Under the pieces are notes generated by a model, which ran no database searches, was not told the DNA's origin, and was given only the letters and a program-made list of their open reading frames with translations. A stretch of 64,000 bases of DNA from Heterodontus francisci (taxonomy: Eukaryota), in NCBI RefSeq assembly GCF_036365525.1, contig NC_090393.1:26940190-27004189 (forward strand), written 5' to 3'. Made by a program: the position numbers and the translations under genes. Shown piece by piece: positions 20,048-61,262 of this stretch. Position 1 is the stretch's first letter; every line of letters starts with the position of its first letter.

Positions 20048-20142
20048 ATAAAAACAATAAATGCTGGAAATACTTAGGTCTGGCAGCATCTGTGGAGAGA
20101 AAAGCAGAGTTAACGTTTCAGGCCAGTGACCCTTCATCAGAA
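20048..20142 (-). mobile_element. 95-bp Penelope-derived unit (solo pLTR) containing a minimal hammerhead
   Basis: 12-bp TSD caagaaataggg at 20036-20047 and 20143-20154; matches the terminus of the Penelope element at 30734. Confidence 0.8.
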
Positions 20143-20143
20143 C
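20108..20143 (-). ncRNA. Minimal type I hammerhead ribozyme motif
   Basis: GUU CUGAUGA AGGGUCACUGGCCU GAAAC GUU/AACU: intact core, stem II, palindromic ACGU stem III. Confidence 0.7.
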
Positions 20144-20179
20144 AAGAAATAGGGTCCTGCTGCAAATAAGCAATAATAT

Positions 20180-21451
20180 GTGGAGGCATATGAGATACTT
20201 GCCTTTATTAACCGAGGCTTAGAATATAAGAGCAGGGAGGTTATGATGGAGCTGTACAAAATGCTAGTTAGGCCACAGCTGGAGTACTGTGTACAGTTCT
20301 GGTCGCCACACTATATGAAGGATGTGATTGTATTGGAGGAAGTGCAGAGGCGATTCACCAGGATGTTGCCTGGGCTGGAGCATTTCAGCTATGAAGAGAG
20401 ACTGAAAAGGCTAGGGTTGTTTTACTTAGAGCAGTGAAGGCTCAGGGGGGACCTGATTTTTTTTTTATTCCTTCATGGGATGTGGGCATGGCTGGCCAGG
20501 CCAGCATTTATTGCCCATCCGTAATTGCCCTTGAGAAGGTGGTGGTGAGCTGCCTTCTTGAACCGCTGCAGTCCATGTGGGGTAGGTACACCCACAGTGC
20601 TGTTAGGAAGGGAGTTCCAGGATTTTGACTCAGCGACAGTGAAGGAACGGCGATATGGTTCCAAGTCAGGATGGTGTGTAACTTGGAGGGGAACTTTCAG
20701 GTGATGGTGTTCCCATGCATTTGCTGCCCTTGTCCTTCTAGTTGGTAGAGGTCGCGGGTTTGGAAGGTGCTGTCTAAGGAGCCTTGGTGCGTTGCTGTAG
20801 TGCATCTTGTAGATGGTACACACTGCTGCCACTGTGTGTCGGTGGTGGAGGAAGTGAATATTTGTAGATGGGGTGCCAATCAAGCAGGCTGCTTTGTCCT
20901 GGATGGTGTCGTGTTTCTTGAGTGTTGTTGGAGCTGCATCCATGCAGGCAAGTGGAGAGTATTCCATCACACTCCTGACTTGTGCCTTGTAGATGGTGGA
21001 CAGGCTTTGGGGAGTCAGGAGGTGAGCTACTCGCCACAGAATTCCTAACCTCTGACCTGCTCTTGTAGCCACGGTATTTATATGGCTACTCCAATTCAGT
21101 TTCTGAAAAATTATGAAGGGCATAAATAGGAAGAAACTTTTTCCCTTAGCGGAGGGCTCAATAACCAGGAGGCATAGATTTACGGTAAAGGGCAGGAGGT
21201 TTAGAGGGGATTTGAGGGAAAAAAATTCACCCAGAGGGTGGTTGGAATCTGGAACTGCCTGAAGGGGTGGTAGAGGCAGGAACCCTCACAACATTTCAGA
21301 AGTATCTAAATGAGCACTTGAAATGCCATAGCATACAAGGCTACTGGCCAAGTGCTGGAAAATGGGATTAGAATAGATAGGTGCTTGATAGTCAGCATGG
21401 ACACGATGGGCCGAAGGCCTGTTTCTGTGCTGTATAACTCTATGACTCTAT
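20180..21451 (+). mobile_element. CR1 (HER1-like) LINE 3' part, interrupted at ~20457-21105
   Basis: AYEILAFINRGLEYKSREVMMELYKMLVRPQLEYCVQFW; (actctatg)n tail. Confidence 0.88.
20457..21105 (-). mobile_element. Zenon/T1-like CR1-group LINE 3' fragment nested in a CR1
   Basis: open frame KLNWSSHINTVATRAGQRLGIL...VMEYSPL; A-rich end. Confidence 0.85.
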
Positions 21452-22068
21452 GTTGCTTTTGTGTTTTTAGCCCATGGACCTGCAAAATAGTCCAGTCCCA
21501 TAGCAGCAGTGGGAGATGCAATAAAGTCCTGTATGCATAGTCAAGAAAGGGTATTCAACTGATTTTTTTTCTTCCTTTGTCTAGGAACACCGAGTTCAAG
21601 TGTATTCTCACTACCCCAGGTAAGGACGGCTAATTTAACACAAACCTGGCACTCAAACCTTGGTCCATATAACTTAATGCTACACCCTGTGCTATATTTA
21701 CCCACTGAAATGATTCTTTTTGCTGGGATCCTCTGGTGGCTTTTTTTAAAGATAGGTTTGTACAAATGTGGACATGATCAACATTTGTGGTTGAATTGTT
21801 TTTAATCAGTCATGACAAAATATGACATACAGCGCCTTCAAGCTAAGTTAAAAGTTTTTCATGGACAGCAATAACTACAAACGTGGTATAACATTAAACA
21901 GAGCTTTTATTTATCAATCATATCAATATTAAAGTTTCCTCTCTGACATGCATTCTAATTAATGCAGTGCTATTAGCCATACTGTGTCAGGCACGCATAC
22001 ATAAAAAGGGTAATAACAGGTTTGGTGTAAACTTTATAATCCACCAAAACAAGGCTCAATGAATGTTT

Positions 22069-22546
22069 AATAATAAAAACAAGAAATGTTGGAAATACTC
22101 AGCAGGTCTGGCAGCATCTGTGGAGAGAGAAGCAGAGTTAACGTTTCAGGTCAGTGACCCTTCATCAGAACTGGCAAATGTTAGAAATGTAATAGGTTTT
22201 AAGTAAATAGAGTGGGGGTGGGGCAAGAGATAACAAAAGGCAAGGTGTTGATAGTACACAGGGTCACAGAGAATAACTGACCAGAAGGTCATAGAGCACA
22301 GTTATTCTCAGTGACTCTGTCCTATCAACACCTTGCCTTTTGTTATCTCTTCCCCACCACCCTGCCCACTTTATTTACTTAAAACCTACTACATTTCTAT
22401 CATTTCTACCAGTTCTAATGAAGGATCACTGACTTGAAACATTAACTCTGCTTCTCTCTCCACAGCTGCTGCCAGACCTGTTGAGTATTTCCAGCATTTC
22501 TTGTTTTTGTTTCAGATTTCCAGCATCTGCAGTATTTTGCTTTTAT
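22069..22546. mobile_element. Palindromic Penelope-derived element (inverted pLTRs)
   Basis: ~200-bp imperfect inverted arms around a 19-nt loop (22280-22298); ~38-nt extra tail on the right arm; 14-bp TSD ctca(a/g)tgaatgttt at 22055-22068 and 22547-22560. Confidence 0.85.
22136..22172 (-). ncRNA. Minimal type I hammerhead ribozyme motif
   Basis: AGUU CUGAUGA AGGGUCACUGACCU GAAAC GUU/AACU; stem I AGUU/AACU; the mirror copy at 22411-22447 has a mutated core (CUAAUGA). Confidence 0.75.
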
Positions 22547-22626
22547 CTCAGTGAATGTTTCTGTTAGTCTGTCATGTTAGATCAGTCTATATGCAATTTT
22601 CAGGGATGGAGCTACAATGAGCAGGG

Positions 22627-23519
22627 AGTCATGCTAGGCCTCCACCTGCCAAGAATGAGGCACATTAATTTTGTCATGAACATTAATTTTAAACTGTTAC
22701 TGGAGTGAAGAAAGGGCTTGTTAAGTAGATCAGCCATGGCTGGAAAAGACATTTGCATATTAACAGACAGTGTTTGGAAGGACAAAGCAGCCATTCCCTG
22801 ACACATTCAACCCACAATGGACCTTGATCACCAGGCGTTGAAAGTGGGGGAGCTCATATTCCAGGTTGACTGCTAAGATGGCCAAATACACAAATGGACA
22901 TGGTCAAACCAGCTAGTCACATGACTAACCTGCTGGACAATCTGAGTTTTTTGAATTTGTACAAACAGTGTGGGCAGAAAGTCTGTTTGCTCCTGGACTG
23001 AGAAGATCTCTCTCCTGTCCGCTCCCATCTCTTTCTCACAAACTTCATGAAGACACATGAACCCCAAGAGAGAAAAGACTCCTACAGCGACCAAGGTTTA
23101 AGAAGAATACTGGGCCCCAACGAAAAGCGAGATCTACTAACAATCAAGAACTCTACAGTGAGCTCAAAGAACGGTAACAATAACTTCAGATATTGCCTCA
23201 AACCTTTTCCACTTTATTTCTTCTGTTCTCTTTCTGTCTCTATCTGCATGTGTGTATCGTGTGTGCATGCTAGCATGAGCGTGTCATGTATCCATAGGCG
23301 TTAACCAAATTAGAGTTTTAAGTTTAAATAAATTTCAACTTTTCTTTAAACCTAAGAAACCCTCTATGTGCTGGTTTCTTTTCCTTATAATTGGAAAGCG
23401 GTAAACAAGGATTCACCAAGGGGGAGCTGAAAACACTGTGTTTAAAATTAAACCGTTACAGTAAGACCAGGTGAAGGCTGAGAGGGAACCCTAGACCTCT
23501 TTCTCACCTGGTCATAACA
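22627..23519 (+). mobile_element. Solo LTR (Gypsy-like)
   Basis: colinear and highly similar to 56374-57279; ends cacctggtcataaca; internal AATAAA. Confidence 0.78.
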
Positions 23520-24008
23520 CGAGCTATAGCCAATTTCTTTCTGCTAGTGTCAGCATTAATAACAGCACTGATGTACATCCAAGCAGTCTATCACTAAATG
23601 TTATTCTTTGAAATCAAGCAAAACAAAAACTTGATACAGTAAAATGTTTACATCAACTCCATAACACTTAACATCTTTTTTGAGACTTTGTGATGTAACC
23701 TGACAGTTAAACAGATGTGAATATGTTCTATTGCCCAATGGTTTATGCCATAATTAAGAATTGACTGATTAGTAGACTAGCATTATCAATGTACCAGCTG
23801 AGGACAATCAATCCTTTTCAGACCATGTGTTTGGTATAATTTAATTCATCAAGCTGTAAAATGTGGATGAATAAATCAGTGAGTATCTTTTCACAATGAA
23901 AGACTGGAAGCCACCTTTAACTACTCCTGGAGTGCAACCAGTACATTGTGCAACAAACAGGTAAAAAGGTCTTTTAATTAGTGTCTTCAAATTTAATCCA
24001 TTTGACCC

Positions 24009-24620
24009 TTCTTCTTCTTTGGCCTCCTTGTCTCAAGAGACAATGGGTAAGCGCCTGGAGGTGGTCAGTGGTTTGTGGAGCAGTGCCTGGAGTGGCTATA
24101 AAGGCCAATACTAGAGTGACAGACTCTTCCACAGGCGCTGCAGATAAAATTGGTTGTCGGGGCTGTTACACAGTTGGCTCTCCCCTTGCGCTTCTGTCTT
24201 TTTTCCTGCCAACTGCTAAGTCTCTTCGATTCGCCACACTTTAGCCCCGCCTTTACGGCTGCCCGCCAGCTCTGGCGATCACTGGCAACTGACTCCCACG
24301 ACTTGTGATCAATGTCACAGGACTTCATGTCGCGTTTGCAGACGTCTTTAAAGCAGAGACATGGATGGCCATGATACCAGTGATGAGCTCGCTGTACAAT
24401 GTGTCCTTGGGGATCCTGCCATCTTCCATGCGGCTCACATGGCCAAGCCATCTCAAGCGCTGCTGACTCAGTAGTGTGTATAAGCTGGGGATGTTGGCCG
24501 CCTCGAGGACTTCTGTGTTGGAGATACGGTCCTGCCACCTGATGCCAAGGATTTTCCAGAAGCAGCGAAGATGGAATGAATTGAGACGTCGCTCTTGGCT
24601 GACATACGTTGTCCAGGCCT
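24009..24620 (-). mobile_element. 5'-truncated RTE-clade LINE (AviRTE-like), older subfamily
   Basis: EAWTTYVSQERRLNSFHLRC...CGRVCHSSIGLYSH; (GAA)n tail; 10-bp TSD catttgaccc at 23999-24008 and 24621-24630. Confidence 0.92.
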
Positions 24621-25289
24621 CATTTGACCCATGCAAGACACAAATCATAGAATACAGAGGGGATAGAATGTAGTGGCATTATATTGCTTTATAAGGCCCC
24701 TAAATACATAACTTTAGATTAAAAGAAATTTTGTGAACTTTCAGTGATGTTGAAATTAAAATTGTTTCTTAAAATGATGAGAGTAAGCTGGGTGTCCTAT
24801 TTGGTAGACACTACTGTGATACTTTGTGTCAAAGTCAAGAAAATATCATTCTTACAAATAGATTAAGAAGAGCATGCAAAACATTGTGTTCTCACAACAA
24901 CCCGGTTAGCAAGAGTTTTGGTAGAATTAGATGAGTGGTTAATTTGATGTAGAAAGATTTTACAGAATAACGCTGGAACCATCTGGTAAATCATGGAAGC
25001 AGAGGACAGTTTTACATCACAATGTAATAATTTTTGTTTACTTTGCGACATAATCTAATTAGGTGCACATTTAATTTTGGCATAAATTGACCAAGAAAAT
25101 CGGCATACAAATGTAGAAAAGTTCAAAAATATACTGCTGCAAGAAATTGTACCCCTTGTTTTGGATCTCCTTAATTTGTTTCTTTGCTGTTTTTGACTAT
25201 TGAAGAATGTCAACAAGTATGAAAATTTAGTGCCCCCCCTTTACCAAGTAAACTTTGCCAACCTCATGGTTTTGTTAGCAGACTAGTAA

Positions 25290-25695
25290 TGCAGAGCGGT
25301 GGAGGGAGAGGGAGAGTTGGAAAAGAACCAAAGGGAAGGTCTTTGATAAGGTGGAAGACAGGAGAGATTAAATGACAAAAGGGTTGGTGGTGCAAGGTCA
25401 AAGGAAACAAAAACAACTAGAGGAGGTGTGAATGGCAGAAGGATGAACAGCTGCTGCCTGAAAGCAAAGAAAGAGGCAAAACAAGACAGTAAAACCAAAA
25501 CCTGCAAAGATAAAGGAAACAAATGGGGGCAGAAGTTACAGTCTGAAATTGTTGAACTCAATGTTGAGTTTGGAAGGCTGTTAAGTGCCAAAAGTTGAGA
25601 TGCTGTTCCTCAAGCTTGCGTTGAGCTACATTGGAAAACTGCATTAGGCCAAGGCCACAGAGGTGAGATCAAGGTGGAGAATTAAAATGACAGGC
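25290..25695 (-). mobile_element. Penelope-like element fragment
   Basis: similar to 30870-31255 of the GIY-YIG-bearing copy. Confidence 0.65.
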
Positions 25696-25699
25696 CTAT

Positions 25700-28040
25700 A
25701 AATTACTCCCACTAGCATTTTCTGATCCTTGTTATTCCTAATCTCCATCTATGCTGATTCTACTTCCTGATGTTCTGAGGCAAGATCCTTTCTGAGTACT
25801 GTCCTTATGTCATCCTTTATTATCAGAGATACTCCCCCTCCTTTTCCATTCTGTCTGTCTTTTATAAATGCTAAGTACCCTGGAATATTTATTTCCCAAC
25901 TTGCAACCATGTCTCTGTAATGGCAATTAGATCAGACCCATTTATCTTAATTTGTGCCACTCGTTCATCCATCTGGTTACAAATGCTTTGCGCATTCTGA
26001 TAAAGATCCTTTAATTTTATTTTTTACCACTATTGCATGGACCTTATTTGCTGATGCACTATTATTATTAAACTCTCTGTCCCTTCCTGTCCCACTCAGC
26101 TTGAGTTTACTCAAATCGCTACACCGCTCCATCGCCTGACCTTTCTCTTTAGATTTCTAAATTTCCCTTCACCTGACCCATCAACACCCCCTCCCCTCCA
26201 CTTTTAGCTTAAAGCCCTATCCACAGCCCTAGTTATATGATTCGCCAGGACACTGGTCCCAGCCCAGCTTAAATTCAGCCCATCACAATGGAACAGCTCC
26301 CTCTTGAACACGTACTCACATCATCACCCTCTATAAAAACAAAGGTGACCGCGGTGACTGCAACAACTACCGTGGAATCTCCCTGCTCAGCATAGTGGGG
26401 AAAGTCTTTGCTCGAGTCGCTCTGAACAGGCTCCAGAAGCTGGCCGAGCGCGTCTACCCTGAGGCACAGTGTGGCTTTCGTGCAGAGAGATCGACTATTG
26501 ACATGCTGTTCTCCCTTCGTCAGATACAGGAGAAATGCCGTGAACAGCAGATGCCCCTCTACATTGCTTTCATTGATCTCACCAAAGCCTTTGACCTCGT
26601 CAGCAGACGTGGTCTCTTCAGACTACTAGAAAAGATCGGATGTCCACCAAAGCTACTAAGTATCATCACCTCATTCCATGACAATATGAAAGGCACAATT
26701 CAACATGGTGGCTCCTCATCAGAGCCCTTTCCTATCCTGAGTGGTGTGAAACAGGGCTGTGTTCTCGCACCCACACTTTTTGGGATTTTCTTCTCCCTGC
26801 TGCTTTCACATGCGTTCAAATCCTCTGAAGAAGGAATTTTCCTCCACACAAGATCAGGGGGCAGGTTGTTCAACCTTGCCCGTCTAAGAGCGAAGTCCAA
26901 AGTACGGAAAGTCCTCATCAGAGAACTCCTCTTTGCTGACGATGCTGCTTTAACATCTCACACTGAAGAATGCCTGCAGAGTCTCATCGACAGGTTTGCG
27001 TCTGCCTGCAATGAATTTGGCCTAACCATCAGCCTCAAGAAAACAAACATCATGGGGCAGGATGTCAGAAATGCTCCATCCATCAATATTGGCGACCACG
27101 CTCTGGAAGTGGTTCAAGAGTTCACCTACCTAGGCTCAACTATCACCAGTAACCTGTCTCTAGATGCAGAAATCAACAAGCGCATGGGTAAGGCTTCCAC
27201 TGCTATGTTCAGACTGGCCAAGAGAGTGTGGGAAAATGGCGCACTGACACGGAACACAAAAGTCCGAGTGTATCAGGCCTGTGTCCTCAGTACCTTGCTC
27301 TACGGCAGCGAGGCCTGGACAACGTATGCCAGCCAAGAGCGACGTCTCAATTCATTCCATCTTCGCTGCCTTCGGAGAATACTTGGCATCAGGTGGCAGG
27401 ACTATATCTCCAACACAGAAGTCCTTGAAGCGGCCAACATCCCCAGCTTATACACACTACTGAGTCAGCGGCGCTTGAGATGGCTTGGCCATGTGAGCCG
27501 CATGGAAGATGGCAGGATCCCCAAAGACACATTGTACAGCGAGCTCGCCACTGGTATCAGACCCACCGGCCGTCCATGTCTCCGTTATAAAGACGTCTGC
27601 AAACGCGACATGAAATCGTGTGACATTGATCACAAGTCGTGGGAGTCAGTTGCCAGCATTCGCCAGAGCTGGCGGGCAGCCATAAAGACAGGGCTAAATT
27701 GTGGCGAGTCGAAGAGACTTAGTAGTTGGCAGGAAAAAAGACAGAGGCGCAAGGGGAGAGCCAACTGTGCAACAGCCCCAACAAACAAATTTCTCTGCAG
27801 CACCTGTGGAAGAGCCTGTTACTCCAGAATTGGCCTTTATAGCCACTCCAGGCGCTGCTTCACAAACCACTGACCACCTCCAGGCGCGTATCCATTGTCT
27901 CTCGAGATAAGGAGGCCCAAAAGAGAAGACAATGGAACAGCTCCCTCTTGAACACGTACTGCTGCCAGTGTCCCATGAATCAAAACCCCTTCTTCCCATT
28001 TAATTCTGTAATCTGCTTGACTCTATGCCAACTCGTGTGT
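25700..28040 (-). mobile_element. Old CR1 5' part (ORF1 esterase / endonuclease junction), split by an RTE insertion
   Basis: aligns by eye to 46560-47280 on both sides of the RTE. Confidence 0.75.
26317..27928 (+). mobile_element. Young 5'-truncated RTE-clade LINE (AviRTE-like) with intact RT frame
   Basis: open frame to 27873 with NYRGISLLS, QCGFR, FIDLTKAFD, GVKQGC, LFADD and a C-terminal CxxC..H..C finger; 32-bp TSD at 26285-26316 and 27929-27960. Confidence 0.96.
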
Positions 28041-29577: not shown

Positions 29578-30733
29578 GGGATGACTACCACACAGTTCTT
29601 TTGAAGACAAAGTCATGTCTTCACACTGAAGGCACCCTCTTTCAGATTGTTTAGCACTATCACTGTGCTAAATGGGATAGATTCGGGAAAGATCCAGCAG
29701 CTCAAAACTGGACATCCAAGAGGGGCTATGGACTATCAGCAGCAGCATAATTGTATTCAACCACAATCTGTAACTTCACAGCCTGGGATATCCTTCATTC
29801 TACCATTACCATCATGCCAGGGCACAAACACTGATTTAATGAGTGTAGAAGAACATGCCAGGAGCAGCACCAGCATACCTAAGGATGCAGTGCCAACCTG
29901 TTGAAGCTTCAACATAGGACTATATGCCAGCTAAACAGCAGTAGCTACATGTTACAGACATGTTCTAAGGGGTTCCACTCCAACGGATCAAATCAAATTT
30001 CTGCAGTCCTACTCATCCAGTCGTAAATGGTGGTGGACATTTGAACAACTAATGGGAGGAGGAAGCTTCATAAACATCCCCGAACGCAATAATGGTGAAG
30101 TCCAGAACGTTACCACAAAAGACGAGGCTGAAGCGTTTCTAACCATCTTCAGCCAGAAGTGTTGCATGGATGATCCCTCTTGGCCTCCTCTAGTGGTTCC
30201 CATCATCACAGAAGCCAGTCTTCAGCCAATTTGATTCACTCCATGTGATATCAAGAAGTGGCTGAGCACATTGGATACAGCAAAGTATAGGGGCCCCAAT
30301 TACATCTCGGTGTAGTACTGAAGACTTGTGCTCCAGGACAAGCCGCACCCCTAGCCAAGCTGTTCCAGTACAGCTACAACACTGACATATACCCGACAAT
30401 GTGGAAAATTACCCAGGTATGTCCTCTTCACAAAAAGCAGCACAAATCCAGTCCAGCCAATTGCCACCCCATCAGTCTGCTATCAAGTGGCATTTACTCA
30501 CTGCCACTCAGTTTGGATTCTGCCCGGATCACTCGGCTTCTGACCTCATTACAGCCTTGGTTCAACCATGGACAAAAGAGCTGAACTCAAGCAGTGAGGT
30601 GAGAGTGATTGCCCTTGACATCAAGGCAGCATTTGCCCAAGTGTGGCATCAAGGAGACCAGTAAAATTGGAATCAATGGAAATTGGGAAAGGTCTCTCCT
30701 GGCTATAGTCATACCTCACACAAAGGAAGATGG

Positions 30734-31791
30734 AATGAAAACAGAAAATGCTGGAAATACTCAGCAGGTCTGGCAGCATCCGTGGAGAGAGAAACAAAGT
30801 GAACATTTCAGGTCGATGACCTTTCATCAGAACTGGAAAAAATTAGAGATGTAACAGGTTTTAAACAGTACAGAGGCAAAAAAAGGGAAGAGGAGGGTAA
30901 GAACAACAGCTAAAGATCTGTGATAGTGTGGGAAACAGGAGAGATTAAATGGCAAAAGGAGTAATGGTGCAAGGCAAAATTCGATGGTAATGGAACAAGA
31001 AACAACACATGGGTCTAGGAGAGGTGTAAATGGGAATAGCAGAATCATTACCAACAGCTGCTATCTGAAAACGTGGGAGCCAAGGATATCATCTTAATTT
31101 GTTGAACTCAGTGTTGAATCCAGAAGGCTGTAAAGTTCCTAATCAAAAGATGAAGTACAGTTCCTCAAGCTTATGTCGAGTTTCATTGGAACACTGTAGG
31201 AGGTTGAGGACAAACAGGTCAATGTGGGATCGGGATGGAGAATTAAAATAACAGGCAACTGGTAGCTCGAGGGCATGCTTGCGAACTGAATGGAGGTGTT
31301 CCGCAAAGTGGTCACCCATTCTGTGTTTGGTGTCCCCAATAAAGAGAAGACTGCTCCATGAGCAGTGAATGCAGTACACTAAATTGAAAGAGGTACAAGT
31401 AAGTTGTTGTTTCACCTGGATCCCTGGATGGTGGGAAGGGAAGACTTGAAAGGGCAAGTGCTACACCAGTCGCGCTTGCAAGGAAACGTGACGTGGGATA
31501 GGGAAAGGGGTGATGGGGATGATTGAGGAGTGGATCAGGGTGTCACAGAGGGAACAGTCCCTTCGAAATACTAAAAGCTGAGTTCTGGCATCACACTGGA
31601 GGTGGTGGAAGAGGTGGAGAATGATCCATTGAGTTTGCAGGTTGTTGAGATGTAAGGTGAAGACAAGGGGAAAACTACCATGGTTCTGGGAGGGAGTGGA
31701 AAGGGTGAGAGAAGTAGTGGGTAAATGGAATGGACATGGTTCAACTATGGTGGAGGTGAGTGGGTGAGAATCCTCAGTTGTGGAAAAAAAG
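30734..31791 (-). mobile_element. Penelope-like retroelement 3' part (GIY-YIG endonuclease remnant plus pLTR with hammerhead)
   Basis: TCTSFNLVYCIHC...FIGDTKHRMGDHFAEH...PVACYFN at 31143-31457; hammerhead-like motif at 30798-30834; 10-bp TSD aggaagatgg at 30724-30733 and 31792-31801. Confidence 0.9.
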
Positions 31792-33033
31792 AGGAAGATG
31801 GTTGTGGTTGTTGGAGGCCAAGCATCTCAGCCCTAGGATGTCTCTGCAGGAGTTCCTCAGAGCAGTGTCCTAGCCCAACCATTTCCAGCATTTCATCAAT
31901 GGCCTTCCCTCCATCATAAGGTCAAAATGCGGATCTTCACTGATGATTGCACAGTGTTCAGTTCCATTCACAACTCCTTGGATAAGTGTCAGGTAATGCC
32001 CATCTCCAACAAGAGAGAATCTAACCAACTCCCCTTGACATGCAACAGCATTACTATTGCTGAATCCCTCACCATCAACATCCTGGGCTCACCATTGACC
32101 AGAAACTTAACTGGACCAGCCACATAATTACTGTGACTACAAGAGCAGGTCAGAGGCTGGAAATTCTACAGTGAGTAACTCACCTCCTGACTCCCCAAAG
32201 GCTGTTCACCAGCTGCAAGGCACAAATCAGAAGTGTGATGGAATATTCTCCACTTGCCTGAATGAGTACAGCTCCAACAACACTCAAACAGCTCAACATT
32301 ATTCAGGACAAAGCAACCCCCTTGATTGACATGCCATCCACCACCTTAAAAATTCACTTCTTCCACCACTGGTGCACTGTGGCTGCAGTGTGTAGCATCT
32401 ACAAATGACCAAGGCATTTTCCACAGCACCTCTCAAACCTGTAACCTGTACCACCCAAAATGACAAGAGCAGCAGATGCACGAGAACACTACCATCTCCA
32501 AATTGCGCCCCACCACCACCACCACCCCGCCCCGCCCCAAGTCACACACCTGACTTGAAAATATTTCGCTGTTCCTTCATCGTTGCCGGGTCAAAATCCT
32601 GGCACTCCCTACCTAATTCGGAAGTACTTTAATCATGCAAACTGCAATGGTTCAATAAGGCTGCTGACCACTAACTTCTCAAGGGCAATTAGGGATGGCA
32701 ATAAATGTTGGCCTTGCCAGCAATGCCCACATCCCATAAATGAATGAAAAAATATGGTGAGTAACTAGGTCATAAAAGGCCCTGTGTGCAATCTGATTCA
32801 GTGGATGCTCATCGATTTTCTGGGCCATTTCAGATCCTGTCATTATTACAAAAACTCTGCAGTATTAATCTGAATTTGCTTCTATTTGTAGCCTGCATCT
32901 CAAATTGGTGAACACAATCCATCAAACTCATACCATATAATGCCACGTTTGTTGTTTGTATTGCGTGTAATCTTGAGCAATACTGTTTTCACACTGTGAT
33001 TATTAATTCTGTTTTGGAAATATTTGCAAGCTT

Positions 33034-33945: not shown

Positions 33946-33954
33946 CATTGTTAT

Positions 33955-39013: not shown

Positions 39014-39085
39014 GATAGCTCCCCTGATTGGTCCATGGTTTTAACCAGTATTTAGCTGAGTCATATGGCTCAGAAAGGTCAAGCG

Positions 39086-39238
39086 TAAAATAGTATGGAT
39101 GCTGGAAATCTGAAATAAAAACAGAAAATACTTGAAATCTTATGATGAAAGGTCATCAACCTGAAACATTAACTCTGTTTACTTCTTCACAGATGATGCC
39201 AGATCTGCTAAGCGTTTCCTGCATTTTCTGCTCTTATT
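39086..39238. mobile_element. Short inverted Penelope pLTR remnant with a degenerate hammerhead, inside an old SINE
   Basis: atgatgaaaggtcatcaacctgaaacattaact at ~39142-39175, flanked by inverted pLTR ends. Confidence 0.7.
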
Positions 39239-40199
39239 AGTTCAAAAAGGTCCCTGGTTCGATGCCTAGTTTATGCTGAGTTAGCTGATAACAACAGGAG
39301 GTGTAGTAGAAGTACTACAATTGGCCTCAGCAACTGGGGTTGGGGAGAGGAAGAACATAAGAACTAGGAGCAGGAGTAGGCAATTCAGCCCCTCGAGCCT
39401 GCTCCGCCATTCAATACGATCATGGCTGATCTCATCTCGGCCTCAACTCCACTTTCCTGTCCATTCTCCATAACCCTTCAACCCATTGCTAATTAAAAAT
39501 CTGTCTATCTCCTCCTTAAATTTACTCAATGTCCCGGCATCCACCGCACTCTGGGATAGTGAATTCCACAGACTCACGACCCTTTGAAAGAAGTAATTTC
39601 TCCTCATCTCTGTTTTAAATCTGCTACCCCTTATCCTAAAACTATGACCTCTCGTTCTAGATTGCCCCACCAGAGGAAACATCCTCTCTACGTCTACTTT
39701 GCCAATCCCCTTAATCATCTTGTATCCCTCAATTAGATCTCATCTCATTCTTCTAAACTCTAGAGAGTAAAGGCCTAAACTGCTCAATCTCTCTTCATAA
39801 GACAAACCCCTCATCTCTGGAATCAATCTGGTGAATCTCCTCTGAACTGCCTCCTATGCAACTACATCCCTCCTCAAGTAAGGGGAGCAAAACTGTACGC
39901 AATACTCCAGGTGCGATCTCATTAATGCCTTGTACAGTTGCAGCAAAACTTCCCTACTTTTATACTTTCCTTTAGCAATAAATGCCAAAATTCCATTTGC
40001 CTTCCTTATTACCTGCTGTAGCTGCATACAGGTTTTCTGCGATTCATGCACGAGGACACCCAGGTCCCTCTGCACCGAAGCACTCTGAAGTTTCTCTCCA
40101 TTTAGATAATAATTTGCCTTTTTATTCTTCTGACCAAAATGGATAACCTCACACTTATCCACATTAAACTCCATTTGCCAAATTTTGGCCCATTTACCT

Positions 40200-41741
40200 T
40201 CTTTTGGGCCTCCTTATCTCGAGAGACAATGGATACGCGCCTGGAGGTGGTCAGTGGTTTGTGAAGCAGCGCCTGGAGTGGCTATAAAGGCCAATTCTGG
40301 AGTAACAGGCTCTTCCACAGGTGCTGCAGAGAAATTTGTTTGTTGGGGCTGTTGCACAGTTGGCTCTCCCCTTGCGCCTCTGTCTTTTTTCCTGCCAACT
40401 ACTAAGTCTCTTCGACTCGCCACAATTTAGCCCTGTCTTTATGGCTGCCCGCCAGCTCTGGCGAATGCTGGCAACTGACTCCCACGACTTGTGATCAATG
40501 TCACACGATTTCATGTCGCGTTTGCAGACGTCTTTATAACGGAGACATGGACGGCCGGTGGGTCTGATACCAGTGGCGAGCTCGCTGTACAATGTGTCTT
40601 TGGGGATCCTGCCATCTTCCATGCGGCTCACATGGCCAAGCCATCTCAAGCGCCGCTGACTCAGTAGTGTGTATAAGCTGGGGATGTTGGCCGCTTCAAG
40701 GACTTCTGTGTTGGAGATATAGTCCTGCCACCTGATGCCAAGTATTCTCCGAAGGCAGCGAAGATGGAATGAATTGAGACGTCGCTCTTGGCTGGCATAC
40801 GTTGTCCAGGCCTCGCTGCCGTAGAGCAAGGTACTGAGGACACAGGCCTGATACACTCGGACTTTTGTGTTCCGTGTCAGTGCGCCATTTTCCCACACTC
40901 TCTTGGCCAGTCTGAACATAGCAGTGGAAGCCTTACCCATGCGCTTGTTGATTTCTGCATCTAGAGACAGGTTACTGGTGATAGTTGAGCCTAGGTAGGT
41001 GAACTCTTGAACCACTTCCAGAGCGTGGTCGCCAATATTGATGGATGGAGCATTTCTGACATCCTGCCCCATGATGTTCGTTTTCTTGAGGCTGATGGTT
41101 AGGCCAAATTCATTGCAGGCAGACGCAAACCTGTCGATGAGACTCTGCAGGCATTCTTCAGTGTGAGATGTTAAAGCAGCATCGTCAGCAAAGAGGAGTT
41201 CTCTGATGAGGACTTTCCGTACTTTGGACTTCGCTCTTAGACGGGCAAGGTTGAACAACCTGCCCCCTGATCTTGTGTGGAGGAAAATTCCTTCTTCAGA
41301 GGATTTGAACGCATGTGAAAGCAGCAGGGAGAAGAAAATCCCAAAAAGTGTGGGTGCGAGAACACAGCCCTGTTTCACACCACTCAGGATAGGAAAGGGC
41401 TCTGATGAGGAGCCACCATGTTGAATTGTGCCTTTCATATTGTCATGGAATGAGGTGATGATACTTAGTAGCTTTGGTGGACATCCGATCTTTTCTAGTA
41501 GTCTGAAGAGACCACGTCTGCTGACGAGGTCAAAGGCTTTGGTGAGATCAATGAAAGCAATGTAGAGGGGCATCTGCTGTTCACGGCATTTCTCCTGTAT
41601 CTGACGAAGGGAGAACAGCATGTCAATAGTCGATCTCTCTGCACGAAAGCCACACTGTGCCTCAGGGTAGACGCGCTCGGCCAGCTTCTGGAGCCTGTTC
41701 AGAGCGACTCGAGCAAAGACTTTCCCCACTATGCTGAGCAG
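40200..41741 (-). mobile_element. Young 5'-truncated RTE-clade LINE, near-identical to 26383-27925
   Basis: identical RT protein in the ORF track; 7-bp TSD tttacct at 40193-40199 and 41742-41748. Confidence 0.96.
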
Positions 41742-45373: not shown

Positions 45374-45945
45374 ACTTCCTTGCTTAGCCATGGATATTTC
45401 TTCCCCCTCTTACAATCTTTCTTCCTCTCTGGAATATATTTTAGTTGGGAGGAATTGAATATCTCCTTAAACATCTGCCACTGCTCATCAACTGTCCTAC
45501 CTTTTAGTCTTCCTGCCCAGTCCACTAGGGCCAAATCTGTCCTCATGCCTATGTAATTACCTTTGTTTAACTCCAGAACGCTACTGTGGGACTCCAGTTT
45601 CTCGCCCTCAAACTGAATTTGAAATTCTAGCATGCTATGATCACTCTTCCCAAGAGGATCCTTTTCTATGAGATCATTAATTAATCCCACCTCATTACAC
45701 AATACCAAATCTAGAATTGCCTGCTCCCTGGTTGGTTCCACAACATATTGCTCCAAAAAACAATCTCTCATACATTCAATGAACTGTCCCTCGAGGTTAC
45801 CCTTGTCAATTTTATTAATCCAGTCTATATGCATATTAAAACCACACATGATTATTGCCATACCTTTCTTACAAGCCCCCAGTATTTCTTGGTTTATACT
45901 GTGCCCCACTAAGGAACTGCTGTTTGGGGACCTATAGATTATTCC

Positions 45946-52672: not shown

Positions 52673-53809
52673 CACTGTGCGTGGTTTGTAGATTTAGTTT
52701 GTATTGCCAGTTTATAAGATACTATCTGGCACTGTAGCCATACACAAAAGTGCAGAAGTTGGTTGTACTAGTGACAAATTAATGGTATTCTTATTCTTAT
52801 GTATAAGATACAAATTTTTCATGGTAACTTGAATGACATGCTGTTTTATAAGAATGGGAGCATTATACCTTGCAATATATTCTAATTTATGGCCTATTCC
52901 TTTAGGCCACAATGGTAATTATGATATATGAAATCAACTGTTATTGGGGACTTACTGAATTCTAAGGCAAACTAGGTGTTTTCTCTCTGCTGGGAAAGCT
53001 TGTTTGTTGAATGGAAATTGTTGGCTTTCTTTGTTTTTTTTTAAATTTAAAAATGTGTCTCCTGAAGTTAATTAGGTATGTTCAGTTGCTAGGGAACTTT
53101 GTTTGTAGATTGGAAATGATATTCTTGCCTTCGCTTCAATCATCATCCTTTAGTCTTTGGTACAGATGCAGAACATTCTTTAAAATTATATATAAGCTAG
53201 CAGATCTCCAATAGGATTGATTTTGATGATTCAGAGTTACTTGTTGATAACTCCCTGGAAGATAATGGTTTCCTTATCCACTGCAGCCATACATTTATTC
53301 CTGTTGCAAACCAATAGTATAAACAAACATCAATATGCAATATGAGGGAGTAGCTCTTTTTTTACTATTAATGTGTTTAATGTGCTTTTTTCTATAGTGA
53401 AGGTCAAGACATATATAAAAATTTAAAACATTAATTCAATGTGTATCTTTCCCTTATCAAATATCTGTGGAACAGGCATCAATACAAAATTCTAGATAAG
53501 TAAACATACACAATGCCAGGACTTTTGATCAGAACTTTCCTCCAAACTTGAACAACAGTAAAGTCAGATAGCTGTTTTATTAAGTACTTTGTACTGTAAT
53601 TTGGTCACTGGTCTTCCCAGTTTACAGATAATGGATGAATAATCACTATGTCAGACCATAAGGCTTAGGTTCTTATCTATGAAGCAGGTTTATTAACAGG
53701 AAAAATTAAACAGTAGCAAAAGATCAAGATAGTGGATTCTACTAGAATACATTTAACTTACAACTGTTTGGTTTTTAAAAATCATGAAAGATGTGAGGGA
53801 TTGTAATAG

Positions 53810-54628
53810 CACTGAACCTGCGTCAATGCTCGTAACAACCGCTCGTTGCAGAGCCACCACGATATTCACCGCGGTGGTGCATTTATATGGCCGGGGTGGT
53901 ACCGCCCCGTTTCCCCACCCCGATGACATGGAGGGTGAGGGCAGTCCGTACCCAGCAATGGCATCCGGCGCCATTGTGCAGGCACTGACACCATTTTTAA
54001 AGGGTTTCCAGCCCTTATATTTTGTTTAAATAGTTAAAGGAATAGGTATTTTAGATTGAATTTAAAAACTTAAAGAAATGTTTCTATCCCCTCTCCACAC
54101 CCGCCTCAATATCCATTCAGTTCATTCCTTGCCCTCTCACCCCCCAAAATACTTACCTTGTGTACCTGACCTCCCCCCCCCCGCCAAAAGTTCATTAACG
54201 TTTAACTTCAAATCCCTTCCCACCATCCCCGCCAATCAGAATAATTTGACTCTGCTCACCATCTCCCCCACCCCCACAAGCACTGAAACACTTACCTGCT
54301 CCCCCCTCCCCACCAGTATCCCACATCGGATCTCTGAAAGGAGATCCAAAGGCGCTGCAGGCCGGCCGCCAGCACCAATATGGCACTGGAACAGATGACG
54401 GGAGCGGGTAAGTATTTAATTCATTCATTCGCATTTTGGTTTGACTATGTTAATGCAGCTCCCGTCGCTGAGCAGCGGGGGAGGGGCGGCCACGAGGCCT
54501 CGCCACTGCTGGCAATATTGGGCAGGGCCTTCCCGGCGTCGAAGCCCATGGTGGGCCTCTTGCGGAGCCATTTTCCACCCACTCCCCACCACGACCCCCG
54601 ACATCGAGGGGTCTGTAAAATCCAGCCC
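53810..54628. mobile_element. GC-rich non-autonomous Harbinger-like element (MITE)
   Basis: right end gtaaaatccagccc (rc gggctggattttac) resembles the end at 60036; shared subterminal motif; left TIR not found. Confidence 0.55.
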
Positions 54629-55554
54629 ATGGAGCCAAAATATGCTCATCTCCACATGGGCTATAATGCAGCAGGAAGAACAAGCAAGTGAAAAATGTTT
54701 CTGTGGTTATTTGTTCTTCGTGATCGCAGAAGCCTGAAGTGTGATTGACAGTTAGATATCATATACAAGTGAACAAAGTTATCAAATTAAAGTGATTGTT
54801 TCTTGCACCTATTACTAATGTTAGATACAATTCCACTCACTTGTATTTCCAAGCACCTACAATTGATTATTTTCATGACAAAGCAACTGGATTTACAGGA
54901 AGCCTTCTGACAAAAATCCTTGGAATTCCAAACATTAGCATATCAATATATCTTGTCCCTTCAAATGGTTACTATGGCTACATTACGGCCAGAGGTAAAT
55001 CTATATTCTATTTGCAGTAAACACATCAAAGAAGTCTCAGCAGAATAGATGTCCCGAAGGCTTTAATATATAAGAAAACATTCTATGACATTAATAATTT
55101 CTGATTTGTCACAGTCACTGCATGCTTCACCTTGTATTTATGATTTGCACAAAAATATTTTCAATGTGAATGTTGCTCGTAGTCATTCAGATAATATGCT
55201 GCTTTACATAAACAAGCATTTTATGCCATGCAATGCACGAGATATTATTCTGTTGCTAAGCTGAAATTGTGTCCCTTTAAGGCCTTAAGTGTAGTTGCTG
55301 TTAACAAAACACTGGATGTATTCATTTAGAGATCAACTGCTATTCAGACTGCAGGTCAGAACCCTGGCTTTGCCTTTTTAAGCATGATCAGTATGTACAA
55401 TGTCATGAATAGATGAGAACCCACTGTAAATTGTGTTTTGTGTAGTTCAGTATGAATGTCAACCACCATTTTTATACAGCATGTTAAGTTTTAGCTGGGT
55501 TCCACTTGTTAAAATGGAAGAGAGTGATCATGGGACAGCAACTTGAAAGGGTCT

Positions 55555-56291
55555 AGTTTTAGGACCTATGAAACCCCAATCCAACCTGCCTGGACTTGAA
55601 ACTGTAACAGTTTGAGGGTACAGCCTGTTTTCAATTCACAGCTGCCTTTGTTGAGTTTAGCACAGCTGCCAGAAGCTGCAAACTTCTCTCAAAGACACAA
55701 TCTGCAAAAGCCAGAAAATTAAAGACACAGACTGCAAACAGTGAAGAAAATTAAAGACACAGTCTGCAAAAATAGCAAGAAAACCTGCTTCTGCTATCTT
55801 CCTCTCCATCTAAGGAAAATGTTACTTCAGCCAATCAAGCTACCTCCATTTACTTTTGAGAGTGCAAAGAAGAAGAAATTTGTAAGTGATATTTCCAACA
55901 GCTCCTTCCCCAATTTGGCTTTTCTAGTCAGTGACCTCCAATTTTTTGGATCTTTTTGATAACTTAAACGGACACTAGTGTTAATTGAAATTCTTGTTAG
56001 TTTATAGTTCTATTTAGTAAATGTCCTTGTCTGTTTATGCCTTTTAACCTTTTCTTGTATGTTTGTAAGCATGCATGGCGAAGTTAAACCCCTTTCTGAA
56101 TTTAAAAGTGTGTAAATAAACCCTAATTCTTTGGCTTAACTCTAACACTGTGTTGTTGCTGTGGTCATTTATTATCAGGGTTTAAGGGAGGGGAAAAATT
56201 CAATCACTAATCTGTTTATGGACAGGTAGTTGGAAAAACAGAGAAATTTGTTCAGAGAAAATAAAAAGATTAACTACCTGTTCGTGACCAC
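55555..56291 (+). mobile_element. Degraded LTR-like element
   Basis: aataaa and 3' block (acctgttcgtgaccaca) similar to neighbouring LTR ends; internal aaaattaaagacacag duplication. Confidence 0.4.
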
Positions 56292-56373
56292 AAGTAAGAG
56301 CCAGCATACACTCAGCCACAGGAACTTTCTATTCTTGGAGAGTAACTTTGTACAGACAGGAATTACATACTCG

Positions 56374-57279
56374 TGTCATGCTAGGCCCCCATCTGCCAAG
56401 AATGAGGCACATTAATTTTTTCATGGACATTGATTTTAAACTATTACTGGAGTGAAGAAAGGACTTGTTAAACAAATCAGCCATGGCTGGAAAAGACATT
56501 TGCATATTAACAGACGGTGCTTGGAAGGACAAAAGGACCATTCCCTGACACATTCAACCCACAATGGACCTTGATCACCAGGTATTGTGTGTAAGAGTAG
56601 CATTCCAAAGACTGCTAAGGTGATACAATCCAAGACATGGTCAGACCAGTTAGTCACATGACAAACCTGCTTGGCAACCTGGATTTTTCTGAATTGTACA
56701 AACAGTTTGAACTCAGAGCACGTCTGTTTGCTCCTGAACTGAGAAAATCTCTCCTGTCTGCTCCCATCTCTTTCTCATGGAACTCCACACCCACTGATGA
56801 CACATGAACCCCAAGAGAGAAAAGTCTCCTTCAGCGAAAAAGGTTTAAGAAGAATACTGGGCCCCAGTGAAAAGTAAAATCTACCGACAATCAAGGACTC
56901 TACAGTGAGCTCGAAGAACTAGAACAACAACTCTTCAGATATTGCCTCAAACCTTTTCCACTTTATTTCTTCTGTTCTCTTTCTGTCTCTATCTGCATGT
57001 ATTTATCACGTGTGCATGCTAGCGTGGACGTGTCGTTTATCCGTAGGTGTTAACTGAATTACAGTCTAAGTTTAAGTTTAAATAAATTTAAATTTTTCTC
57101 CTTTAAACCAAAGAAAGCCTGTTGTGCTGGTTTCTTTGCTTTATAATTGGAAAGCGGTGAACAAGGATTCACCAAGGGGGAGCTCAAAACACAGTGTGTT
57201 TAAAATTAAACTCTGTGATGGTAAGACCAGGTGAAGGCTGAGAGGGACCCCTAGACACCTTTCTCACCTGGTCATAACA
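56374..57279 (+). mobile_element. Solo LTR (Gypsy-like)
   Basis: TGTCATG...CATAACA; near-TSD ctcg/ctag; homologous to 22627-23519. Confidence 0.82.
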
Positions 57280-57639
57280 CTAGATATATGATATATAAGT
57301 GTACACTGTTTGTAAATCCTGGAGTAAAATGGTTATCAAGGGCAGAAAAAAAATCCCAGCTTTTTCTTTCTTTTATTCACCACTTTGACGATGAAGTGTG
57401 ATCTGTGAAGTATATTACATATAAATATAAATCTCTGCCTATGGTGTATTAGTGCATACTTTTCCTTAGTAATCTTTGCAGAAAGTAATTAAAGTTAGTT
57501 TTTCAGTGTTTTATGACAGTCTGTAACTGAGACATGTTGGCTCCACAAATATCTACATCTATGATTTCTCTATGTGTCTAAATATATGCCCCCAACAAGA
57601 AAAGGCCCAATCATCACAACCTGATCAACAATGGCACCA

Positions 57640-58290
57640 TTTTTGAGATCTCACCATCAACATCCTAGATGTCACCATTGGCCACAAGCTTAACTGGACT
57701 AACCATTTCAATAATGTGACTACAAGAGCAGAGGCTGAGTACTCTATGGCAGTGGCTCAACTCCTTTTCCCCTGATGTCCTCCAATATCTGTAAGGTTCA
57801 TGTTGGGAATGTGATAGAGGCCCAAAAGAAAGAAGAAGAACATGTAACAACATTCAAGTTTGACACCATTCAAAGCCAAAGCACTCTATTTGATTGGCAC
57901 TTGTGCATTGAACTTAATATTTACCCCCTTCACTATCAGCACACTGTAGCTATAGTTATGTACTATCCACAGGCTGAACTGCAGCAACTCACCAAGCCTA
58001 CTTTGACAGCATTTCCCAGCCTATGATATCTGCCACCAAGAAGGACAAGAGCAGCAATGTAATGGGAACACCATCACCTCCAAATTTCAAGTCACACATC
58101 ACCCTGACTTGCATTGATGGGCCATTTCATCATTACTATATCAAAATGCTGGTGTTCCCTCTCTAACACCAATATGGGAGCACACCACAAGGCCTGCAGT
58201 GGAAGTGGAAGGTCCACCACTACTTTTTCAGAGTAACTAGGGACAGGCAATAAATACGGCCGTGCCAATGTTGCTTACATCCCAAGAAGA
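57640..58290 (+). mobile_element. Highly degraded Zenon-like LINE 3' fragment
   Basis: cttaactggac, gactacaagagcag and ggcaataaat motifs shared with the other copies. Confidence 0.65.
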
Positions 58291-58580
58291 AATCATACAT
58301 TCTTATTGAATATCTGGACTGTTATAGAAACTTTAAATGGTCAAAAATCAAGGAATTGATTAACCTCAAAAAGAATGTGAAGCATCTAACCTTATGGGAT
58401 AGTTCGATTGTTAAAATTGAGCCACTAAAGTTAAAAGTGGAACAAATAAATCTGTTGTACTCAAACTAGGAAATACATCAGTGCCTCTATAGAGGAAGAA
58501 CATTCAAACAGATTGTTGTTTTGGAAGTTGGGTACATGTATAACAGAGAGCTTACAAACTGTAAAAGATTAGATCCACCT

Positions 58581-59560
58581 TTTTACCACTTGCGGTATGG
58601 CCAAGTGAGGAGGGGTCGAAGGGCTTCCCTCTTTTCCCTCTCCTTGTTTGACCACAACAGGTTTAATTCTTTTTTAAAGTGAATGTGCTGGCCAATTCAG
58701 TAGGTGTTTGATTACTTACTTGCTATGATCATTACAAGAACCAATTGGACAGGTTTTCTTGAGTTAACAATGAAAGAGTTTAACTTTATTGTACCTAAAC
58801 TGAACTAATAAAAAGAAAAACCAATGCGCCAACTTTCACTCACAGATACAAACTAGAGGTTTACACATAGAAAAATAGATTAAAGAGTGGTGAAAGGTAG
58901 ATTGGTTGAGTTAGAGTCCATAGAAAAATGGAATATACAGTCTGTGGAGTTTGGTGGTTCAACTGACTTCTAGCTGAATTCAGTGGTCCTGAGGCTTTTG
59001 ATTTGAAGAGGTAGATGACTGGTGCGGTGGGTCTCTTGGAGACAGTGATGTGGATGATTTCCTCCACAGGGTTTCTGATTGTAGCCGGAGTATGCAAAGG
59101 TGGTCAGTCAACAGACAGGATTTGAAAGCTTTTAAGGTCGCATGGAGAGAGAGAGAGAGGGACCCCCACTTGGGTTTGCACGTGTCAGAGTCAAGTTGCT
59201 TCTCCTCGCTCTGCTGCAGAAAGACACAAGCTTAAAACCACAGATGGGGAGGGGCTTGTCACATGACAGTCACTCAGTGATTCAAACATAGCAATTAGCA
59301 GTATTTCTCTCTTGCTAAAAAGAACAGGTAGTTCCTTTAAACTTTCTGGATCTTGGGTCTTGCTGTAGCATGAGCAGACATTTCGTCTCCCTCCTCACAA
59401 GCATTGCAGTTTTGCAAATTAGATAGCCATCTTAAGCTGTCAGCAAAGTTATCCTTTTAGCTGGTCTTTTTAAAAATGTCTTTAAAAAAATATATAAACT
59501 CAGAACTCCAGTCATTGGATTAAAGAAAATTATCATTCAACAAAGCACATTGGTGTAACA
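58581..59560 (-). mobile_element. Solo LTR-like element
   Basis: ends gtgtaaca; AATAAA on - strand; LTR-like size; TSD unclear. Confidence 0.5.
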
Positions 59561-60360
59561 CTTGCATGTGTTGTATAGTGCCTGGAATATGAATGCGTGA
59601 CGTAGCAGAATCACTGCATCTTGGTCGCTTTCAGATATATATTTACATACATACGAACGTACGAATTAAGAGCAGGAGTAGGCCACTTGGCCCCTTAAGC
59701 CTGCTCCATCATTCATTAAGATCATTTTACTTTTACTGTTGTGCAAGTGCAGATAATGATACTTTTCTGGAATAGTGCTTTGATTTTTTTGCAGAGGAAT
59801 AGATTCTAAATTATGAGATCTAAATGATGGAACCTCATCATAGCAATCAATCATTCAGAATCATCCTACAATTCCTGTTAAATGATTTGTAAATGTATTC
59901 TTTCCTCAGTTTAATGTCATCTTTAATTCCTCTAAGTGTTCTTTTCCTTTACATACTAAGTGTGGGTTAAATTACGATTATGTTTCCCTAAAATTAGCTA
60001 TCAAAGCACTGAAAAAAGCAATGAGTTAAGACAATGTGCTGAATTTTATTGGCACGCTGCCGAGATTGGCGCGTGCTTTAAAAATGGCAGTCCACCTGTG
60101 CAGACCGCCCATTGTGGAGCTGCCGTGGTATTTAGCACAGCAGCTCATTATAATAGACGCAACGTACTGCCCCCCCAAAAGACATGGAGGGGGTGGGATT
60201 TTCAGCGCCAGTATCTGCGTTGGGTCAGATGAGCATCAGTTGCTAGGACCCTATTTAAAGAGCAGTCAGCACATCAGTGATGCCTCCACTGCCAGAACAG
60301 AGCTACCGAGAGAACCCCTTGTCTGCTGAAGTTTGATCTCTGTGTGGACATCCCAAAAGT

Positions 60361-61076
60361 TTGAAGATAGCATCAGAGGGACATTCCAGGGTGGCCCCAT
60401 GGTTCAGTGATGCCTCCCTGCTCACTCTCCTCCAGGATGTACGGGCAAGGCAGAAGGTCATCTTCTCCAGCGATGGCAAGAAGAGGCCCTCCCGTCTGAC
60501 CAAGGCAGCCTGGCTAGAGGTGGCAGAGGAGGTCAGTAGCCGTGGGGCTATCAGGCGCAATTGGGTCCAATGCTGAAAGAGGATGAACAATCTGCTGCAC
60601 ACCGCAAAAGTAAATGGCACTTTAGATCAGGGCTCCACTAAGCCTGGGTGTGCCCACACAGAGTGGCACATGCCACTGCCATGCCAAAAACATGGAGGTT
60701 GGGCAGGGAGGAAAGACATGACAAGAATGGAAGAATGTATGACAGAACTTACCTTTGTCTGCTGCTCAGAACATGGCACCTACATGAGTGGCTCACTCAG
60801 TAGTGCACACCGAGCATCCCCCGCCTTTGTGCCCAGCACCCCTCTTGTGACATGTGTTGTGCAATTGATCTGCCGTGCTTAATATCTGCCTCCTTGCTCC
60901 TCCAGGCAAAGACAGCACACAATGCAAAGGGGGCCAATTTTACTGGTGGAAGAATGCCAGACATTAGCAGGCTCACAGACGCTGAGGAGGAGGCCTTGGA
61001 GATATCGGCTAGCCATGTGGAACATGCATTCGGTGACGTAGACCTCGGGGTCCTGGATGAACATATGTCCACTTGA
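60361..61076 (+). pseudogene. Harbinger Myb/SANT-like DNA-binding protein, spliced (exon to 60609, exon from 60906), premature TGA at 60574
   Basis: RVAPWFSDASLLTLL..V..RQKVIF...AWLEVAEEVS...RRNWVQC*KRMNNL, gt..ag intron, then KTAHN...TGG..P...LTDAEEEALEI. Confidence 0.75.
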
Positions 61077-61159
61077 TATAAACAATGATCACTGTGAAAT
61101 TGTTGTTGTGTGATACAATGCTGTTATAATTGTGACATGCGCAACATCAAGACTGACAG

Positions 61160-61262
61160 AAATAAAAACAAGAAATGCTGGAAATACTCAGCAGGTCTAG
61201 CAGCATCTGTGGAGAGAGAAGCAGAGTTAACATTTCAGGTCAGTGACCCTTCTTTGGAACTG
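61160..61262 (-). mobile_element. 103-bp Penelope-derived unit with a decayed hammerhead core
   Basis: 11-bp TSD aagactgacag at 61149-61159 and 61263-61273; same unit as 20048-20142. Confidence 0.82.

Follow-up and report, generated by a model that had tools for sequence, protein, structure and literature searches.

Penelope-like elements (PLEs) of the endonuclease-bearing (EN+) Neptune and Nematis groups combine a reverse transcriptase (RT) with an endonuclease (EN) of GIY-YIG type at the C-terminus, carry a CX2-5CxxC linker between the two and possess a hammerhead ribozyme in their pseudo-long terminal repeats (pLTRs); partial tandems, an inverted 5'-truncated arm and a tail of 30-40 bp at one end only have also been described (Craig et al., 2021, PMC8557442). 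An abundant element with the same features is found in the shark Heterodontus francisci, and its debris lies in the window studied here, i.e., the whole stretch of 64,000 nt at 26,940,190-27,004,189 on the forward strand of NC_090393.1. The two ~100-bp hammerhead units of this window are pieces of the kind that spans the initial ~100 or ~135 nt of the pLTR in this Neptune-type Penelope element, which encodes RT and GIY-YIG domains. The 5' ends of its copies pile up at the 5' edge of the hammerhead, where ~45% of the arms that reach it stop, whereas the available portions of Craig et al. report no such pile-up. Strong and real as this positional signal is, it comes from the remains of an element of a known kind and does not represent a new family of mobile RNA.

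Other described systems share single features with the shark element. In PAc/Poseidon from the green anole, the tail has been traced to two internal RT start sites, both DNA strands are extended, and priming in vitro is internal, at the tail, with uncleaved RNA as the main template and the cleavage site devoid of reads (Frangieh et al., 2024, PMC11167929); the PAc open reading frame (ORF), however, starts inside stem II, that of the shark element at +168. Minimal hammerheads of metazoan PLEs have, like those found here, a helix I of 4 bp, an extra unpaired base after A9 and a palindromic ACGU for helix III, and they occur mostly as single motifs that are "probably related to truncated PLEs" (Cervera and de la Peña, 2014, PMC4209133). 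In contrast to these, helix II comprises 5 bp in the shark element and its youngest subfamily carries the U4C exchange. Non-LTR (long terminal repeat) retrozymes are likewise non-coding, hammerhead-bearing and derived from or related to PLE pLTRs (Cervera and de la Peña, 2020, PMC7229834; Li et al., 2026, bioRxiv 10.64898/2026.07.22.740005), but form families of their own with tandem repeats of ~150-450 bp that yield circular RNA (PMC7229834), whereas the short shark copies that start at the hammerhead edge, here called stubs, are single and seem to lack a lineage of their own. In full-length L1 insertions, the 5' junction carries an additional G, which is restricted to the presumed 5' end of the RNA and ascribed to copying of the cap (PMC11702581), as discussed below for the shark copies; L1, however, primes at the poly(A) 3' end, so that run-off yields the full element, whereas internal priming near the 5' end would yield a product of ~100 nt here. 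Minimal hammerheads, the tail, internal priming, inverted and solo pLTRs, and retrozymes from pLTRs are already in print, and a literature search, to which subscription papers were mostly inaccessible, yielded no account of 5' ends accumulating at this edge of the hammerhead.

Positions are counted in hammerhead sense from C3 of the core CUGAUGA (position 0), which places the predicted cut (GUU) between +28 and +29. The first-pass annotation of the window had placed the 5' ends of two ~100-bp units, near 20 and 61 kb, at the 5' edge of the hammerhead and away from this cut, and this holds, since they lie at -3/-2 (with a G common to the target site duplication, TSD) and at -5, respectively. 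It was also right about an internal junction near 39,141, as the arm beginning there starts at about -2. The wider sample comprises 229 arms with a tail, of which 157 were obtained with patterns placed downstream of the cut site, 68 are incidental and 4 belong to the window. Nearly all are from one chromosome, both arms of an inversion being counted if both carry the anchor. The first 30 loci, anchored on the hammerhead core, were excluded from the breakpoint statistics save for incidental copies, and the rate table (n = 220) leaves out one duplicate and eight arms ending beyond +50. Among 136 arms reaching the edge (+1), 61 end at -6 to +1, with a mode at -4. The end rate there is 0.056 per nt, ~20 times the background of 0.002-0.004 per nt at -15 to -200 (Fisher p 7e-35); inside the hammerhead (+2 to +25) it amounts to 0.010-0.020 per nt, and around the cut to 0.006 per nt. 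A uniform spread of breakpoints, which the first-pass annotation had named among the outcomes that would speak against its proposals, is therefore not what is seen; the ends pile up sharply at -4/-3.

Short-tail and long-tail arms stop alike at the edge (28/63 and 33/73), so the stop is set by position, and a stop defined by distance was rejected. Among 100 listed copies of the youngest subfamily, counted by hand, 39 end at the edge (-7 to +2), 46 are longer, 11 end inside the hammerhead, four at +33 or beyond and none at +26 to +32. Exact counts for this subfamily over the whole genome give 2450, 3958, 4346 and 844 apparent ends at -2, -3, -4 and -5, respectively, and 14410 copies reaching -15. 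The patterns for -2 to -5 carried an extra upstream condition, that for -5 took only an A/G flank, and 10, 1, 21 and 3 of the first 100 matches listed for each are long copies. Since chance matches following a -4 end can account for most of the apparent -5 ends, the upstream edge is sharp at -4.

The pile-up is found in non-inverted (37/102), inverted (24/34) and incidental arms (21/50), which bears on the formation of solo pLTRs. Full-length copies starting at -4 might lose their body by recombination between short terminal direct repeats; the same TSD-flanked product would be expected, and solo pLTRs of rotifers have partly been ascribed to recombination or deletion (PMC3846280). The share of stubs, however, is no lower in young copies (41/96 at an anchor identity of at least 95%, 20/40 below, and 39/85 in the youngest subfamily), the arms of inverted insertions end at the same place, and a start at -4 would still be required, which makes this origin of the stubs extremely unlikely.

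Ends defined by ribozyme cleavage were rejected as well. Only 9 of 207 arms end at +26 to +33 (0.005 per nt, against 0.003 per nt at +34 to +50) and none of the 100 listed copies of the youngest subfamily does so, so that genomic ends show no peak at the predicted cut site. At six loci (L202, L223, L224, L231, L232, and L234), another repeat with a shared terminal motif has, judged by eye, apparently inserted into TTAA at the cut site of older copies; several of the +26 to +33 ends seem to be due to such later insertions, which can mimic truncation at the cleavage site. The earlier idea that the hammerhead sets the boundary of insertions stands only as a coincidence of position, but cleavage is not responsible for it, and the evidence leans to the RNA's own 5' end lying there.

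With a probability of roughly 60%, we suggest that an RT primed at the tail runs off an uncut, likely capped transcript that starts at the 5' edge of the hammerhead. Transcription would begin at A(-4)/G(-3), directed by a TATA-like box and an initiator (Inr), and the tail site would lie ~100-135 nt from the presumed cap. Primed at one of the tail's two internal start sites, close to the RNA's 5' end, RT would run off that end, and the short cDNA would be integrated as a TSD-flanked stub, whereas longer 5'-truncated copies might arise when RT is primed at the 3' pLTR or inside a tandem read-through RNA. Stubs, lacking the TATA-like box, are likely dead ends. The modal end is the A of YCAGTT, an Inr-like motif. 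Of 46 non-redundant long copies, 38 have a TTATAA/TTAAAA-like box 24 nt upstream, five are without a recognisable box and three have other spacings. As the ATG is at +168, a start site must lie in this pLTR; a review places the transcription start in the pLTR of the upstream partner (PMC6765202). Of 41 non-inverted ends at -4/-3, 30 have a G directly on their 5' side, compared to 15 of 59 at other truncation points (p 4e-6), and hand counts on longer listings give G in 21/40 and 26/51. Copies carrying the ORF start also end at the edge above background (5/28).

Several observations weigh against a run-off at the RNA's 5' end. Copies with the ORF start stop at the edge less often than tail-primed arms (5/28 versus 61/136, p 0.01), so that an extra assumption, such as tandem or circular templates, is needed, and the end rate is already raised at +2 to +25. 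The spacing between box and start is modest evidence because it is conserved among related subfamilies only, and the drop in depth of assembled contigs, for most of which an RNA origin is a guess, and their loose ends at -4/-5 mirror genomic copy number and are no evidence for an RNA start. The excess of G can also stem from target microhomology or self-templated additions: folding back on the cDNA mirror of stem I gives a G at -5, some of the listed -3 and -4 ends show the first 6-10 nt copied a second time, and many junction G's are common to the target or self-templatable. By eye, the -2 class of ends has an excess of C instead of G, and among loci not chosen by a junction pattern G precedes only 6 of 12 ends (p 0.08). 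In Drosophila virilis, moreover, Penelope transcription starts 46 nt before an intron of 75 nt (PMC2377424), which ends at the 5' end of helix I (PMC4209133), so the start is not at the hammerhead edge there.

The lower stop rate of ORF-start copies would be better accounted for if freshly primed arms met a template boundary, i.e., if the hammerhead fold, or an RT ribonucleoprotein gripping it, stopped the cDNA at stem I's outer edge although the RNA extended further upstream, with telomerase-like slippage and re-copying. The outer pair of the 4-bp stem I (A-4 with U+32) coincides exactly with the modal end, short stretches of the first bases are found re-copied at junctions, the end rate climbs through the hammerhead, and the PLE protein of the anole requires the hammerhead-bearing first 172 nt of its ORF (PMC11167929). 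A helix, however, should stall RT at its entry, on the 3' side, and not once it is unwound. The fold of the region is also no better than that of shuffled sequences (z -0.81), stem I is missing from the minimum-energy fold, and the Inr/TATA-like geometry and the confinement of the G excess to -4/-3 would be left unexplained, which renders such a boundary possible but rather doubtful. It is somewhat speculative, too, to regard the hammerhead as less a nuclease than a template boundary, at whose outer stem I a telomerase-related RT halts, realigns and re-copies, while a dimeric RT fires two tail sites, one per DNA strand. The idea of a dimeric RT draws on the 27 two-armed insertions that were left once four double entries had been merged manually, 26 of which pair one long-tail with one short-tail arm. 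When the arms of inverted insertions were compared with each other, fold-back could not be told apart from independent priming. If a template boundary exists, the RT of PLEs would be tied to telomerase-like template definition.

A sharp upstream edge with a tail of shorter ends could also be left by processing of the template's 5' end, either because 5'-to-3' decay is arrested at stem I's base or by a bound protein, or because a splice acceptor CAG|TT is used after a branch-point-like CTAAY. The acceptor-like sequence is conserved, and the D. virilis intron mentioned above ends at the corresponding place. By eye, however, the listed junctions share no upstream exon, TSDs mostly adjoin the end directly or within ~10 nt, and no matching splice joint is present among the 15 joints listed out of 30, so that processing seems unlikely. 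Just 5' of the ATG at +168, the tandem copy L181 possesses a polypyrimidine tract followed by AG that resembles a splice acceptor. No spliced retrocopy lacking an intron between hammerhead and ATG was found among 41 matches listed, the search pattern being blind to exon ends with C at -3.

How PLEs are transcribed and copied, and what role their hammerheads play, are open questions in the field (PMC8557442, PMC11167929). If a run-off from an uncut transcript holds true, thousands of genomic stubs would locate the site at which transcription of a vertebrate PLE begins with a precision of one or two bases, uncut RNA would be the template in vivo, internal priming would waste a large share of events as dead ends of 100 nt, and the abundance of single minimal hammerheads in such genomes would be explained. 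Although the key step is inferred from DNA alone, the pile-up opens both the start site and the hammerhead's role to direct testing.

The first-pass annotation had also considered a discrete non-autonomous "ribozyme-SINE" (short interspersed element) or a retrozyme-like unit, transcribed and mobilised as a ~100-bp family of its own. Stubs do have a discrete length, their own TSDs and very many copies; 13 simple stubs in 0.74 Mb suggest, as a rough density from regions chosen near other copies, ~100,000 per genome. On a tree of positions 0 to +95 (94 columns), however, 37 stubs and 56 long copies are intermixed, with 30 label changes compared to a shuffled mean of 29.1 (352-366 of 500 shuffles are as low). 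Four sets of identical sequences span both kinds of copy and stubs are present in every subfamily. No lineage of stubs descending from short masters, as expected of SINEs, is thus apparent, even though so few columns may leave room for a small hidden subfamily. Both ends of the stubs are ragged, the TATA-like box falls outside of them, and no RNA polymerase III boxes were recognised by eye. The window units and sampled stubs are single and TSD-flanked, whereas retrozymes consist of tandem repeats with a hammerhead in each. A separate family is accordingly not supported and appears very unlikely. Short arrays with a repeated junction do exist and would favour a retrozyme: at L140 and L142 (around 1250-1650), head-to-tail repeats of ~260-270 nt join the ORF-start region to the region just upstream of the hammerhead, and these look like true retrozyme-type tandems derived from this Penelope element.

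That the units contain a minimal hammerhead, as stated earlier, is confirmed. They possess the core CUGANGA/GAAA/UH, helices I and II and the palindromic helix III of the minimal type I form, and 97.8% of the cells of the named structure are paired, none of 500 shuffles being as high (a comparison of related sequences, which yields no probability). The closing pair of helix II varies among 88 copies (GU 38, AU 32, GC 16, AC 0); as most other pairs barely vary, covariation rests on this one pair. An Rfam search yielded no model matching these hammerheads and gave only two chance matches, on the palindrome near 22 kb. The U4C core CCGAAGA is present in 13 of the 88 copies and is a subfamily trait, which in the youngest subfamily (for example L181:5563-5569, minus strand) occurs together with a G-C closing pair of helix II. 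In another context, the U4C variant has much lower activity in vitro (PMC3088659), and the spread of the youngest subfamily with this weakened core is expected if cleavage is dispensable. The core of the 61-kb unit, CCAAAGA, had been called decayed. Most simply, it derives from the CCGAAGA core by one CpG transition (G5A), which is decay, whereas U4C was likely inherited and is thus probably not.

The parent unit occurs as a tandem array with a period of 3296 bp (tandem copy L181) and has a single ORF of 896 codons with an ATG at +168. Its translation matches RVT_1 (E 2e-05) and, at the C-terminus, GIY-YIG (E 0.0019) of Pfam, both short of the curated cut-offs, and a zinc-finger linker C-x4-C-x2-C, which conforms to CX2-5CxxC, precedes the GIY-YIG domain. 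The label Neptune is provisional; it is drawn from this linker, which Neptune and Nematis elements both carry. The domain order, the tandem or partly tandem pLTRs, the inverted 5' arm and the optional tail are those of EN+ PLEs, and the supposed link of the units to a Penelope RT holds throughout the genome, where the units are the 5' parts of the pLTR of this element. Pattern searches of the shark's own 6.0-Gb genome with four exact motifs gave 3558, 20163, 5225, and 44876 matches. The 3' ends of arms show two modes, at about +95-98 and +130-136, matching the optional tail and the two internal RT start sites of PLEs. At L126, L134, L140, L142, and L191, the ORF-start region (+210 to +237) is repeatedly found joined to the pLTR, either at its TATA-like AT-rich box or just below it; these junctions are perhaps insertions into the element's own pLTR. 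At L125, L193, L195, and L185, ORF sequence directly abuts a unit whose start lies at -4/-5, in three cases with G before A; these chimeras are likely template jumps after run-off.

The insertions of the window are listed in Table 1. The first-pass annotation's two ~100-bp units between perfect TSDs of 12 and 11 bp are found as described, and an exact 11-bp repeat at such boundaries (with a slack of ±5) arises in 7 of 20000 random placements. The long copy that had been described as a GIY-YIG Penelope element terminated by the hammerhead unit is indeed one, flanked by 10-bp TSDs and matching the protein of the parent element (tblastn, 51% identity, E 1e-39).

Table 1. Penelope-derived insertions and their target site duplications (TSDs) in the window (UTR, untranslated region).
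Feature	Positions	Strand	Basis
TSD, left copy, 12 bp, exact	20036-20047	.	sequence
Stub, pLTR -3/-2 to about +95, short tail start; 3' hairpin with 3-bp deletion	20048-20142	-	sequence
Hammerhead of minimal type I, with C3 at 20140; cut predicted between 20112 and 20111	20108-20143	-	sequence and fold pattern
TSD, right copy, 12 bp; first base is also element position -3	20143-20154	.	sequence
TSD, left copy of two-armed insertion, 13 bp, 1 mismatch to 22548-22560	22056-22068	.	
Short-tail arm of two-armed insertion (-128 to +97), hammerhead core intact	22071-22298	-	
Long-tail arm of two-armed insertion (-109 to +132), core decayed	22299-22547	+	
TSD, right copy of two-armed insertion	22548-22560	.	
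TSD copy, 10 bp, 3' end of long element	30724-30733	.	
Older 5'-truncated Neptune-type copy, 1.06 kb: GIY-YIG remnant (31149-31688), 3' UTR, TATA-like box, hammerhead, short tail	30734-31791	-	
TSD copy, 10 bp, 5' end of long element	31792-31801	.	
Long-tail arm (about +75 to +133), old two-armed insertion	39083-39139	-	
Short-tail arm of old two-armed insertion, start about -2	39140-39239	+	
Degenerate TSD of the 39083-39239 insertion	near 39070-82 / 39241-53		
TSD, left copy, 11 bp, exact	61149-61159	.	sequence
Stub, -5 to about +98; core CCAAAGA; C3 at 61257	61160-61262	-	
TSD, right copy, 11 bp	61263-61273	.	sequence

The two-armed insertion at 22071-22547 was absent from the earlier list of units; in a self-comparison of the window, both of its arms pass the hammerhead edge by more than 100 nt. 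An older fragment of the same Penelope family (25336-25705) comprises the end of the GIY-YIG region and 3' UTR, with no hammerhead or tail found alongside. The window also contains an inverted pair of sequences resembling long interspersed elements (26383-27924 and 40200-41741), 12 kb apart and 99.9% identical over 1542 bp, which is either a very recent pair of insertions or the product of a conversion event.

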